A DNA stretch of 64,000 bases from Alphaproteobacteria bacterium (GTDB lineage: Bacteria > Pseudomonadota > Alphaproteobacteria > Bin95), in the NCBI GenBank assembly GCA_964291285.2, contig OZ219786.1, positions 1,216,001 to 1,280,000 on the forward strand, in the 5' to 3' direction. Both the position numbers and the translations under genes were made by a program. The notes below the pieces were generated by a model. It searched no databases and was not told where the DNA came from. It was given only the letters and a program-made list of their open reading frames with translations. Below are positions 39,600-40,589 of this stretch, in pieces. Each line of letters begins with the position of its first letter. Positions within the stretch are counted from its first letter, which is position 1.

Positions 39600-40589
39600 A
39601 TGCCCGTCATCGACCCCGCCGTCGCGCTTTCCACCCGCCAGGAAGCCTTCTGCCGCCACTACACAGCGTCCGGCAATGCCGCAGACGCCGCAAGGCAGGC
39701 CGGCTATGCCGAGCGCTCCGCACGACAGACCGGATGCGCCCTGCTGGAGCGGCCCTACATCGTCGAGCGCGTGCGCCGCATCCGCCTGTCGTGGCGGCGC
39801 ACCGAACGCGACGAGGCCCGCATCCTGCTCGCCCGCTCGGAGCAGGCCTGGGACGCCGCCGTCGCCAGCGGCTCGGCTTACATGATGCTCCGGGTGCTGC
39901 GCTTCCAGGCCGAGATCGCCGGGCTTGTCAGTCCGGCCGGCGCGAACCGGGCCCGCCTCTGGCCGCTGCCGCACGAGGACGAGTTCGGTGAGATCGAAGC
40001 GGGCGAGGCGCAGGAGGCGGGCACCGAGCCCGGACCGCTCGCCGAGGCCGTGCGCAGCGGCCATGCCCGGGCCGAACGAGCGCTCGCCCGCCACCGCGAG
40101 CGGCGCGAGGCGATGGAGGCGCAGGAGGGCTTCGACGGGGCCGCGCACGAGGAGGACGCCCGCAGGCTCGCCGCGGCCGTCGAGGAGCGCTCCCGCCTGC
40201 CCGTCAGCTTCGGCCCCCCGCCCGCGCCGGCGAACGACCTGCCGCCAGCCGACGACCCGCCGGAGGAGACCTACGAAGACTGCCCCTGGGCCGCCGCCGA
40301 CACGCCCGGCCACGAGGACAGCACCGACGACGACCGGGCCGACGGCGCCGAACATGACTGGCTCTACCAGCGCCGCAACGGCTACGACGACATCTACGAC
40401 CCCTGGGCCCCGGAGCAGGTCGAGGAGCGCAGGCAGAGCCGCCTCGAACGGGAAGAGCGGGGCGAAGACGAAGACAACGATTGGAGCGGACCGGCGGCGA
40501 GGGGGAAGAAGCAGAAAAAGAAGAAGGGGAAGAAGCGGAGGACCGGCCCGGAGGACGCCGGTTCCGCCCCCGACCATGACAAAACATGA
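39600..40589 (+). CDS. Terminase small subunit-like protein with long acidic tail, ending HDKT
   Basis: LSTRQEAFCRHYTASGNAADAARQAGYAERSARQTGCALLERPYI matches the TerS (Terminase_2) N-terminal HTH pattern; [10 protein letters not shown]. Confidence 0.8.
   Translation: MPVIDPAVALSTRQEAFCRHYTASGNAADAARQAGYAERSARQTGCALLERPYIVERVRRIRLSWRRTERDEARILLARSEQAWDAAVASGSAYMMLRVLRFQAEIAGLVSPAGANRARLWPLPHEDEFGEIEAGEAQEAGTEPGPLAEAVRSGHARAERALARHRERREAMEAQEGFDGAAHEEDARRLAAAVEERSRLPVSFGPPPAPANDLPPADDPPEETYEDCPWAAADTPGHEDSTDDDRADGAEHDWLYQRRNGYDDIYDPWAPEQVEERRQSRLEREERGEDEDNDWSGPAARGKKQKKKKGKKRRTGPEDAGSAPDHDKT

Follow-up and report, generated by a model that had tools for sequence, protein, structure and literature searches.

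A small-terminase-like protein and a phased heptad array on a dispersed cassette family in an alphaproteobacterial genome

The window, a stretch of 64,000 nucleotides, contains an open reading frame (ORF) at 39600..40589 on the plus strand that is real (GC3 0.89) and that encodes a 329-residue protein related to phage small terminases (TerS). It is preceded by uvrA (34789-37647, minus strand) and a gene for a luciferase-like oxidoreductase (38116-39243, plus strand) and followed by ssb (42035-42508) and gyrA (42558-45266). No other phage genes were found near the ORF and no terL was found in the window, in agreement with the first-pass annotation, which had placed the gene outside any prophage. 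Its description of the neighbours as host genes holds for uvrA, the oxidoreductase gene, ssb and gyrA but not for the immediate downstream neighbour, which is an IS3-family insertion sequence (40608..41857, plus strand; orfA 40586-41035 and orfB 41035-41829, with the Pfam domains HTH_Tnp_1 and rve). This element sits 6 nt past the last heptad of the array described below, is flanked by a 3-bp duplication (CAC at 40605-40607 and 41858-41860) and has about 10 copies in the genome at ~99% identity; it is a later insertion, outside the cassette proper.

Residues ~1-120 of the protein are small-terminase-like, as had been claimed from the sequence pattern. The Pfam family Terminase_2 (PF03592) matched with an E value of 1.8e-11 and a score of 45.2 bits, above the cut-off of 26.1, which places the helix-turn-helix (HTH) in this family by profile, with an alignment that covers only positions 2-62 of the 141 in the profile; the PHROG family phrog_51 ('terminase small subunit') matched with an E value of 9.9e-13. 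Residues 9-59 correspond to the solved DNA-binding domain of the SF6 small terminase in sequence and also in a fold comparison (4zc3/2cmp, with 40% identity and an rmsd of 0.8-1.4 Å over 50 columns, a TM of 0.82 for the target and a Foldseek E of 0.17), and ordinary proteins of 140-180 aa found with phmmer align to residues 9-120 at 35-40% identity. An AlphaFold2 (AF2) model of the ORF places the HTH and two long helices in residues 1 to ~120, with pLDDT above 88 over residues 11-110 and confident helices at 52-107. A confident helical hairpin follows at residues 146-199, and past residue ~200 the model is mostly disordered. A full-length SPP1-like TerS (3zqq) superposes badly on this model, with an rmsd of 8 Å and a TM of 0.37 for the target. 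The N-terminal 125 residues (39600..39974, plus strand) are predicted to form a TerS-like module for DNA binding and self-association. In oligomer modelling, which had been proposed as a check, four copies of residues 1-125 gave an ipSAE of 0.42 (median of 3 runs) against 0.00 for the best control, a value that could stem from solved TerS rings learned by the model. Contacts agreed between runs to at least 54%, partner pLDDT was at least 70, and the interface comprised residues 69-111. Neither Pfam nor PHROGs gave a recognisable transposase or recombinase in the ORF, and the AF2 model and a PDB fold search gave no catalytic fold.

The acidic, D/E/P-rich extension and the lysine run noted previously were both confirmed, at residues 126-300 (50 of 175 residues D or E, 16 P) and 301-314 (RGKKQKKKKGKKRR, 40500-40541 of the window). 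The lysine run is kept in the closest homologues only and is missing from most of 40 aligned relatives. Across the eight intact 329-aa copies in the genome, pN/pS is 0.26 overall, indicating purifying selection, with values of 0.23 for residues 1-70, 0.16 for residues 71-125 and 0.28 for residues 126-300. The protein had no match among the plasmids of PLSDB. Seven INPHARED phage records matched it, all over residues ~7-97 only, and three loci were found by protein in IMG/VR, at 34% identity over residues 9-77 only. All relatives found come from metagenome-assembled genomes (MAGs) whose titles read Alphaproteobacteria or Rhodospirillaceae bacterium; one of these MAGs is named 'Spongia_Bin9'.

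The gene lies within a cassette of ~1.4 kb that consists of a promoter-like region, a conserved leader of ~255 nt, the ORF and a heptad array. The left end (39244..39315, plus strand) includes an AT-rich segment, TTGTTCC...AATAATTC, from 39280, where similarity between copies starts. When 10 full and 8 short copies from the window genome and 6 copies from a related genome (G007) are aligned, homology begins near (A)TTGTTC, and some copies are more weakly similar over another ~40-60 nt. The promoter-like region (39316..39344, plus strand) is read by eye in these alignments as TTGACC, 17 nt and TAGATA, and other copies bear TTGCAT...TGGTATGAT there; a consensus promoter scan made no call in either the window copy or copy L045, and the single terminator-like site that was found, on the minus strand, scored no better than shuffled sequence. 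The GC-rich leader (39345..39599, plus strand) has a near-invariant core, GCGCGCAATCAGGCGCGCG, at 39455 and a ribosome-binding site, AAAGGAG, at 39581-39587. We make no claim for a structured leader RNA because the two short stems that RNAalifold proposed from 74 leader copies contain G-U changes and zero compensatory pairs; Rfam gave no match over 39200-40750 at E up to 1. The array itself (40575..40601, plus strand) is 27 bp long and contains three CATGACA heptads at 10-bp spacing. The stop codon of the ORF, TGA, lies inside the second heptad, and the array supplies TGA in all three forward frames.

The outer limits of the insertion were set by comparison with the orthologous site in five related genomes. 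In two of these (G006 and G014; loci L022 and L024) the site is empty and the oxidoreductase stop codon directly precedes the region upstream of ssb, in G016 a different cargo lies within the same leader and array, and in G010 and G015 only arrays are present. The right end of the cassette (41861..41900, plus strand) holds the right copy of a target duplication at 41875-41900, with ancestral sequence from 41901; the left copy, an imperfect direct repeat of ~25 bp, occupies 39219..39243 and comprises the last codons and stop of the oxidoreductase gene. The two copies are identical at 17 of 26 positions in a manual alignment. Relative to the empty sites, the inserted DNA amounts to ~1.4 kb with one ORF, plus the insertion sequence. 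Two further pairs of occupied and empty sites were found. Duplications at the individual sites were ~25 bp (imperfect), 22 bp, ~10-12 bp and 6 bp, with none at one locus, and no duplication uniform among the insertions was found. The cassette has a sharp right end at the array and a left end that is fuzzy around TTGTTC, and no terminal inverted repeats were found on it; a motif resembling a terminal inverted repeat at an insertion in G011 (AGTGTC-N3-GTTTGAC) was rejected as a general end after 0 matches in the window genome. At one further locus, an ordinary isochorismatase-like gene is bracketed by a leader module and an array module, both of which are missing around it in G014 and G007; leader and array may thus move independently of the TerS-like gene.

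Within the genome we found 12 Terminase_2 hits of this type, and the genome holds eight intact 329-aa copies, two variants and several truncated forms. A unit of ~1.26 kb (~39341-40602 in the window) repeats at 88-97% nucleotide identity and also has deletion derivatives, one internal deletion being common to four short copies at different loci. The gene had been described as an orphan, a single domesticated TerS; it is instead one of about ten paralogous copies in a repeated cassette of ~1.4 kb. With copies at unrelated loci and presence or absence at orthologous sites, the cassette has the distribution of a transposon. Copy L045 is a composite insertion of 2.57 kb without a clear duplication, and the flanks of a short copy, L042, map to different places in all relatives, marking a synteny breakpoint.

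Leaders and arrays are far more numerous than the gene. The leader had 109 nhmmer matches in the genome, 85 of them near full length, and an array lies within 1.3 kb downstream of 74 of these 85. The heptad pair CATGACA-N3-CATGACA matched 252 times, compared with 0 for the reversed control, and these matches group into 114 array loci, of which 97 (85%) have a leader on the same strand within 1.5 kb upstream. Over 6.1 Mb this gives about one array per 54 kb, fairly evenly spread, with 16-23 per Mb on all but one of the five contigs. Arrays outnumber the TerS-like gene about 10 to 1, and at about 100 loci the leader-array pairs enclose other cargoes, most of them tiny or decayed ORFs. A second cargo family ('MTATDPRP...', 192-234 aa) has 155 relatives at E up to 0.001 and no match in Pfam or PHROGs. 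The few of these relatives with a source name are hypothetical proteins from Rhodospirillaceae or Alphaproteobacteria MAGs. Insertion sequences accumulate in the leader-array units.

Gene and array also go together across genomes. The TerS-like gene is present in 13 of 17 genomes of the genus, which hold 103-319 heptad pairs each, whereas the four without it hold 0, 0, 1 and 23; the last of these values belongs to G008, which has no match to the gene. Among 24 genomes of other genera the count is 0-1, and the reversed control gave 0 in all 41 genomes. In one genome, G033, a TerS-like ORF of the phrog_51 type that has an acidic tail occurs seven times, but the genome has zero heptads. Distant relatives from other MAGs (45-59% identity) have a different, short leader, and their ORFs also end in arrays, here of (C/G)NTGAC with 10-bp phasing; triple-TGAC arrays numbered 76, 66 and 42 in their genomes and 0 in the control. 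The array co-occurs with the TerS-like gene across genomes and stays at its 3' end in distant relatives. The link that we draw between protein and array comes from this adjacency and from co-occurrence among related, non-independent genomes.

The first-pass annotation had suggested looking for TerL or gene-transfer-agent (GTA) genes elsewhere in the genome. Four Pfam models (Terminase_6N, TerL_ATPase, Terminase_3 and GpA_ATPase) gave 0 TerL hits in this 100%-complete genome, which likewise showed no GTA cluster combining head and tail genes with TerL and a capsid gene of the HK97 type; the one Phage_capsid match is weak (28.9 bits) and lies away from the locus, at C2:88158-88493. Any role in packaging would need an incoming phage, because no TerL was found in the genome.

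Searches of phage contigs in IMG/VR with ATGACA-N4-ATGACA-N4-ATGACA returned 80 loci. A terminase hit lies within 1.2 kb of 15 of these, about 1.5-2 times a rough expectation of ~10%, and six arrays sit 47-262 bp upstream of a phrog_51 terS, the PHROG of the window protein itself. Ten of the 80, three of which belong to the six phrog_51 cases, directly adjoin the 3' end of a gene for a phrog_36 regulator, at no more than 50 bp, and an array in that position may be a late-activator site rather than a TerS site. The phage arrays, which in some of these contigs head the late or packaging operon, share with the cassette the hexamer, the 10-bp phasing and the overlap with the end of an ORF; the contigs that hold them are from low-GC phages that have terL, unlike the window genome. 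BLASTP gave no alignment between the window protein and two array-adjacent phage proteins, a phrog_51 TerS and an unassigned ORF upstream of terL. We give no weight to an apparent enrichment of the phage arrays at contig ends (24 within 1 kb, 12 expected), since assemblies break at tandem repeats.

Compared with phage TerS of the Terminase_2/phrog_51 type (SF6 and the SPP1-like G1P; 2cmp, 4zc3, 3zqq), the protein has the same N-terminal HTH (40% identity, rmsd ~1 Å over 50 residues), two long helices after it and a predicted capacity for self-association. Phased direct repeats adjoin the TerS-like gene, a position that pac sites also take in many pac phages. Unlike phage TerS, it has neither an adjacent nor a resident terL, its C-terminal part is replaced by an acidic tail of ~200 aa, and its gene occurs on the chromosome in multiple copies, each of which has its own promoter-like region and leader. 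Satellites of the SaPI/PICI type use a TerS of their own to redirect helper-phage packaging to the satellite pac site. Like them, the cassette has a TerS homologue that lies outside any phage, is paired with a putative site of its own and would need a foreign TerL, but it differs in that no island genes of this kind surround the TerS-like gene (no integrase, replication or capsid-remodelling genes in 1.4 kb) and in having its putative site at 114 loci rather than one. Known dispersed repeats include REP/BIME elements and MITEs, and promoters that propagate are termed 'mobile promoters'. Like these, the cassette family has ~100 mostly intergenic copies and short deletion derivatives, is a preferred landing site for insertion sequences and has one upstream region that fronts unrelated ORFs. 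It departs from them in its dissimilar ends without inverted repeats, in carrying a promoter-like region, a ribosome-binding site and an ORF, in having a TerS-like protein as its best-conserved cargo, and in that the genome has no RAYT/Y1 transposase.

The reading that we favour, with a probability of roughly 45%, is that the gene encodes a self-associating, TerS-derived protein for which the array is the cognate pac-like site, both being carried on a dispersed cassette family. The protein would oligomerise through helices in residues 69-111 in the manner of small terminases and would bind the phased heptads as TerS binds pac repeats, so that gene and array could form a self-recognising pair of protein and site. 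Copies may have spread in part through insertion, with target duplications that are short and imperfect, and in part because shared leaders and arrays recombined with one another. With the lowest certainty of these steps, the dispersed arrays together with the protein might offer an incoming phage's terminase pac-like decoys or points of entry, the effect of which would be interference with packaging, packaging of host DNA, or both. A packaging role of this kind had been proposed for the gene before, and the dispersed pac-like arrays make the idea more concrete. A pure pac-site model is unable to explain the ~10:1 ratio of arrays to genes with 85% leader coupling. The mechanism of mobility and the function, be it packaging hijack, transposition aid or architectural role, we infer from these patterns.

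A portion of the evidence would also fit a new transposable element, an explanation that we consider unlikely, though the most probable of the rivals. Here the TerS-like protein, encoded by the element, would act on leader and array as a pair of unlike ends, either by recognising them or as an unfamiliar transposase, and the short forms would have lost autonomy and be moved in trans. The many unlinked copies, the identical internal deletion in four of them, the tight coupling of leader and array, the occupied and empty orthologous sites and the imperfect direct duplications of ~10-25 bp at three sites all accord with this, as does the independent expansion of TerS-like ORFs with their own promoter in two lineages. 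The protein, however, has no catalytic domain in Pfam or PHROGs and is modelled as mostly disordered past residue ~200, and the cassette lacks terminal inverted repeats, has a fuzzy left boundary and leaves imperfect duplications of variable length. A Y1 HUH transposase (RAYT/IS200-like, PF01797) had 0 matches in the genome, while the control was positive in 6 of 14 genomes; Y2_Tnp also gave no match, though its control likewise gave none. Leader and array modules are moreover able to bracket a resident gene separately, and exchange of cargo by recombination accounts for much of the spread.

Somewhat less probable still is a family of architectural or regulatory DNA-binding proteins (nucleoid-associated, or similar to terminators or insulators) with no connection to phage, in which the arrays would be binding sites that mark the 3' ends of units driven by the propagated promoter and leader. 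The even distribution of arrays over four of the five contigs, their position at ORF ends with stop codons in all three frames, the purifying selection on the whole protein including its tail, the lack of TerL and the frequent abutment of similar phage arrays on a transcription regulator gene are what such a family would predict. Against it, the mostly tiny or decayed ORFs among the cargoes, the absence of the gene from 4 of 17 genomes of the genus and the accumulation of insertion sequences look selfish rather than housekeeping.

The remaining explanations have little to recommend them. A single domesticated orphan TerS among host genes would agree with the TerS-like N-terminus and the flanking uvrA, ssb and gyrA, but the 12 genome hits, a repeat unit that includes non-coding flanks, the empty site in G006 and G014 and the insertion sequence directly downstream make it very improbable. 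We hold in equally low regard a secreted effector acting in the nucleus of a sponge host; its DNA-binding domain, acidic activation-like region and NLS-like lysine run suit the composition of the protein, and its relatives were found only in Alphaproteobacteria/Rhodospirillaceae MAGs, one of them Spongia_Bin9, but most of the 40 relatives lack the lysine run and the arrays are left unexplained. Finally, although solo phage genes are often what is left after a prophage or GTA cluster has decayed, there is next to no chance of that here, since the inserted DNA is only ~1.4 kb plus an insertion sequence with no phage gene nearby, the same cassette occurs at ~10 unrelated loci, the TerL models find nothing, and relatives show an empty or cargo-swapped site and no prophage.

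A full-text literature search found no description of the TerS-like cassette. It is a doubtful proposition that sponge-associated Alphaproteobacteria harbour an undescribed selfish or domesticated system, in which a TerS ring and a pac-like site serve as a portable, genome-colonising pair that would divert any incoming pac-type phage whose large terminase is compatible into packaging host DNA. We estimate that the array spacing of ~54 kb is about one phage headful, and, if true, the system would amount to a genome-wide, satellite-free packaging hijack that combines defence with gene transfer. The 125-residue domain and the 27-bp array are the candidate protein-site pair. If the protein binds the arrays, a TerS recognition module would exist outside any virus or satellite, amplified with its own site across a genome, and this would represent either a new way in which a host or a selfish cassette exploits phage packaging or a new family of mobile elements in which no transposase is recognisable. 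About 1% of the genome (an estimate from ~100 copies of ~0.5-1.4 kb) would be explained as well, together with several landing sites of insertion sequences and at least one synteny breakpoint in these uncultured sponge symbionts.

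The open reading frame at 39600-40589 on the forward strand encodes 329 aa (GC3 0.89 in a genome of 68% GC), exactly where the first-pass annotation had placed it, and its TerS-like N-terminus is matched by Pfam Terminase_2 (E = 1.8e-11, 45.2 bits against a cut-off of 26.1, over profile positions 2-62 of 141 only), by PHROG phrog_51 "terminase small subunit" (E = 9.9e-13) and by the solved DNA-binding domain of the SF6 small terminase, which aligns with residues 9-59. An AlphaFold2 model built from a 40-row alignment has confident helices at residues 52-107 and superposes on 4zc3/2cmp with a TM-score (target) of 0.82, an r.m.s.d. 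of 0.8-1.4 Å and 40% identity; the Foldseek E of 0.17 is explained by the shortness of the domain. Four copies of residues 1-125 were predicted to associate through residues 69-111, with a median ipSAE over three runs of 0.42 (best control 0.00) that may stem from resemblance to solved TerS rings; contact agreement between runs was at least 54% and partner pLDDT at least 70, and when the tool was calibrated, 20 of 30 solved homo-pairs scored high enough to pass, as did 1 of the 23 single chains. Ordinary proteins of 140-180 aa share 35-40% identity with residues 9-120. The acidic tail and lysine run noted at first pass are also present, D and E making up 50 of the 175 residues at 126-300 and residues 301-314 reading RGKKQKKKKGKKRR. 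Genome-wide Pfam profiles for TerL, a search the first-pass annotation had proposed, gave no match in G000, the window's own genome, for any of Terminase_6N, TerL_ATPase, Terminase_3 and GpA_ATPase, and a single weak Phage_capsid match lies away from this site. Plasmid, phage and IMG/VR searches found no record carrying the full-length protein. On this evidence the product is TerS-derived but is not classed as a working small terminase.

The frame sits in a unit of ~1.4 kb. Similarity between copies starts at 39280 in an AT-rich TTGTTCC...AATAATTC segment, and the promoter-like TTGACC-17-TAGATA at 39316-39344 (TTGCAT...TGGTATGAT in other copies) is a putative promoter on our reading by eye; the consensus scan tool called none in the cassette. 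The GC-rich leader of ~255 nt has a near-invariant core at 39455 and a ribosome-binding site at 39581, and 3' of leader and frame stand three CATGACA heptads (40575, 40585 and 40595). The stop codon is the TGA within the second heptad, and the 10-bp spacing puts TGA in all three frames. A promoter-plus-leader profile gave 109 matches in G000, 85 of them near full length, and 74 of these 85 have a heptad array within 1.3 kb downstream on the same strand. CATGACA-N3-CATGACA occurs 252 times (reversed control, 0) at 114 array loci, 97 of which follow a same-strand leader at a distance of no more than 1.5 kb. The cargoes between leader and array include the TerS-like frame, many frames of 30-60 aa, all ending within the array (...HDKT, ...HDIS or ...HDIP before the stop), and, at a single locus, an ordinary isochorismatase-like gene. 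A second cargo, an acidic protein of 192-234 aa (MTATDPRP...; loci L031-L036, for example L031:381-1037), is multicopy in G000, has internal YDGSEDE-type repeats and matches neither Pfam nor PHROG; of its 155 relatives at E <= 0.001, the few with a named source are hypothetical proteins encoded in MAGs of Rhodospirillaceae or Alphaproteobacteria. At least four G000 leaders are broken at the same leader position (~252) by an IS with a 599-aa transposase-like frame, and four are split at positions 85-145 by a different insert of ~1.1 kb with a ~60-bp duplication (contig coordinates of interrupted leaders: C1:257688, C3:195934, C3:941065, C4:199585; C1:640044, C1:858808, C2:878082, C3:1276390).

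The gene is present in 13 of 17 genus genomes, and these hold 103-319 heptad pairs; the four that lack it hold 0, 0, 1 and 23, and 24 genomes of other genera hold 0-1 (reversed control 0 in 41 of 41), counts that are not an independent-sample statistic since the genomes are related. Relatives at 45-59% identity, from MAGs titled Alphaproteobacteria or Rhodospirillaceae bacterium (one of which bears the name "Spongia_Bin9"), have a short, quite different leader, and their frames terminate in 10-bp-phased (C/G)NTGAC arrays; three of their genomes hold 76, 66 and 42 triple-TGAC arrays (control 0). Because these distant relatives keep arrays but not the leader, what is conserved as a pair is, on sequence comparison, the gene with its array, the long leader being specific to the genus. 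G033, from another family, runs counter to this pairing: its seven copies of a ~290-aa phrog_51-type frame with an acidic tail (L145-L149) have no heptads; the repeat boundary there is sharp at a compact promoter of its own (ACTTGTATTCC...TATAAG), a few bases 5' of the start codon. Our preferred reading, to which we assign a probability of roughly 0.45, is a self-associating TerS-derived DNA-binding protein with the phased heptad array as its putative cognate site, on a dispersed cassette family; we infer that the protein would recognise the array. Full-text literature searching, at the level of result listings, gave nothing relevant on such a cassette.

The flanking host genes are uvrA, a luciferase-like oxidoreductase gene, ssb and gyrA; the first-pass description of the neighbours as host genes holds for these and fails directly downstream, where an IS3-family insertion sequence (40608-41857) lies within a 3-bp duplication, CAC (40605-40607 and 41858-41860). 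This element has ~10 copies in G000 at ~99% identity, several of them 4-6 nt from an array edge, on one side of the array or the other and in either orientation; many IS-less arrays are followed by short stubs like its inverted repeat (TGGAGTGGGCCC...), and array edges are its apparent target. A 127-aa frame at 37754-38137, between uvrA and the oxidoreductase gene, has a coding-like GC3 of 0.83 and no Pfam match.

The orthologous site is empty in G006 and G014, the ssb upstream region directly following the oxidoreductase stop codon; G016 has the same leader and array with a cargo of the 34-aa type, G010 and G015 have only arrays, and G011 has the TerS-like cargo without the oxidoreductase gene. 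The DNA that the empty sites lack (39244-41900) comprises the ~1.4-kb cassette and the 1250-bp IS, flanked by an imperfect target duplication of ~25 bp (17 of 26 positions identical by manual alignment). A G011 copy (in locus L104, 4063182-4067000) lies within a 1.68-kb insertion with a 22-bp target duplication where G000 is empty; ~20-bp inverted repeats bound the insertion (GGGYAGTGTC...GTTTGAC), a motif not present in G000. A second G000 copy lies in a 2.57-kb composite insertion with no clear duplication, missing from G016, G012, G010 and G002, and one short copy is at a synteny breakpoint. The isochorismatase-like gene, single-copy in 10 of the 17 genus genomes and differently flanked in G016, G010, G012 and G015, is bare between the same flanks in G014 and G007 (locus L037/L151; G000 C3:1747400-1748680), and in G000 and G006 is preceded by a leader module of ~460 bp and followed by an array module of ~105 bp, both with short repeats at their flanks; of the array module, G007 retains a 28-bp stub. 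These site comparisons indicate that a leader or an array module can come or go without the other and that cargo is exchangeable between sites sharing them, which accounts for the mosaic promoters and fuzzy left boundary. Insertion, together with recombination at the leaders and arrays that sites have in common, would spread the family, a mechanism that we likewise infer. It is unlikely that the protein is instead the end-recognition factor of a new transposable element, since Pfam, PHROG, the AlphaFold2 model and a fold search identified no transposase within it and no Y1 HUH transposase was found in G000.

Contrary to the first-pass annotation, the gene is no orphan: G000 (6.1 Mb, five contigs, 100% complete) has 12 Terminase_2 matches of this kind, and BLASTN with ~39341-40602, non-coding flanks included, recovers ~10 loci at 88-97% identity, which contradicts a single domesticated gene; a prophage remnant is contradicted too. 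Eight copies are intact, each exactly 329 aa; another is 336 aa, one covers query residues 1-292 and several are truncated. One internal deletion is common to four short copies at separate loci, so the deleted form itself multiplied. Differences among the eight intact copies are mostly synonymous (pN/pS 0.26 over the full length, with 0.23 in residues 1-70, 0.16 in 71-125 and 0.28 in the acidic stretch 126-300), and by this measure the entire protein, tail included, is kept by selection.

A phage parallel was found in IMG/VR, where 80 loci (L172-L251) with ATGACA-N4-ATGACA-N4-ATGACA were read among at least 115 matches and 251 neighbouring frames of 95 aa or more, none farther than 1.2 kb away, were compared with PHROGs, the first 125 at E <= 1e-5 and the remaining 126 at E <= 1e-7. 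A terS or terL match lies within 1.2 kb of 15 of the 80 arrays read (rough expectation ~10%, our own estimate), a phrog_51 terS 47-262 bp downstream of six (same strand in five), and the 3' end of a phrog_36 regulator gene within 50 bp of 10, including three of the six phrog_51 cases. On several low-GC phage contigs, ATGACA triplets with 10-bp phasing run across the 3' terminus of a phrog_36 regulator gene (late-activator-like) that shortly precedes (HNH-)terS-terL. The phage triplets could be a motif conserved in late promoters or in pac regions. In overlapping the end of a frame where a packaging operon begins, the phage arrays resemble that of the cassette, although their binder could be the phrog_36 regulator rather than TerS. 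Role is the least certain step of our best explanation. An architectural or regulatory protein ranks last, below the transposable-element factor in likelihood; ranked first, the TerS-derived protein and its arrays may together act as a pac-like decoy or hijack the terminases of incoming phages.
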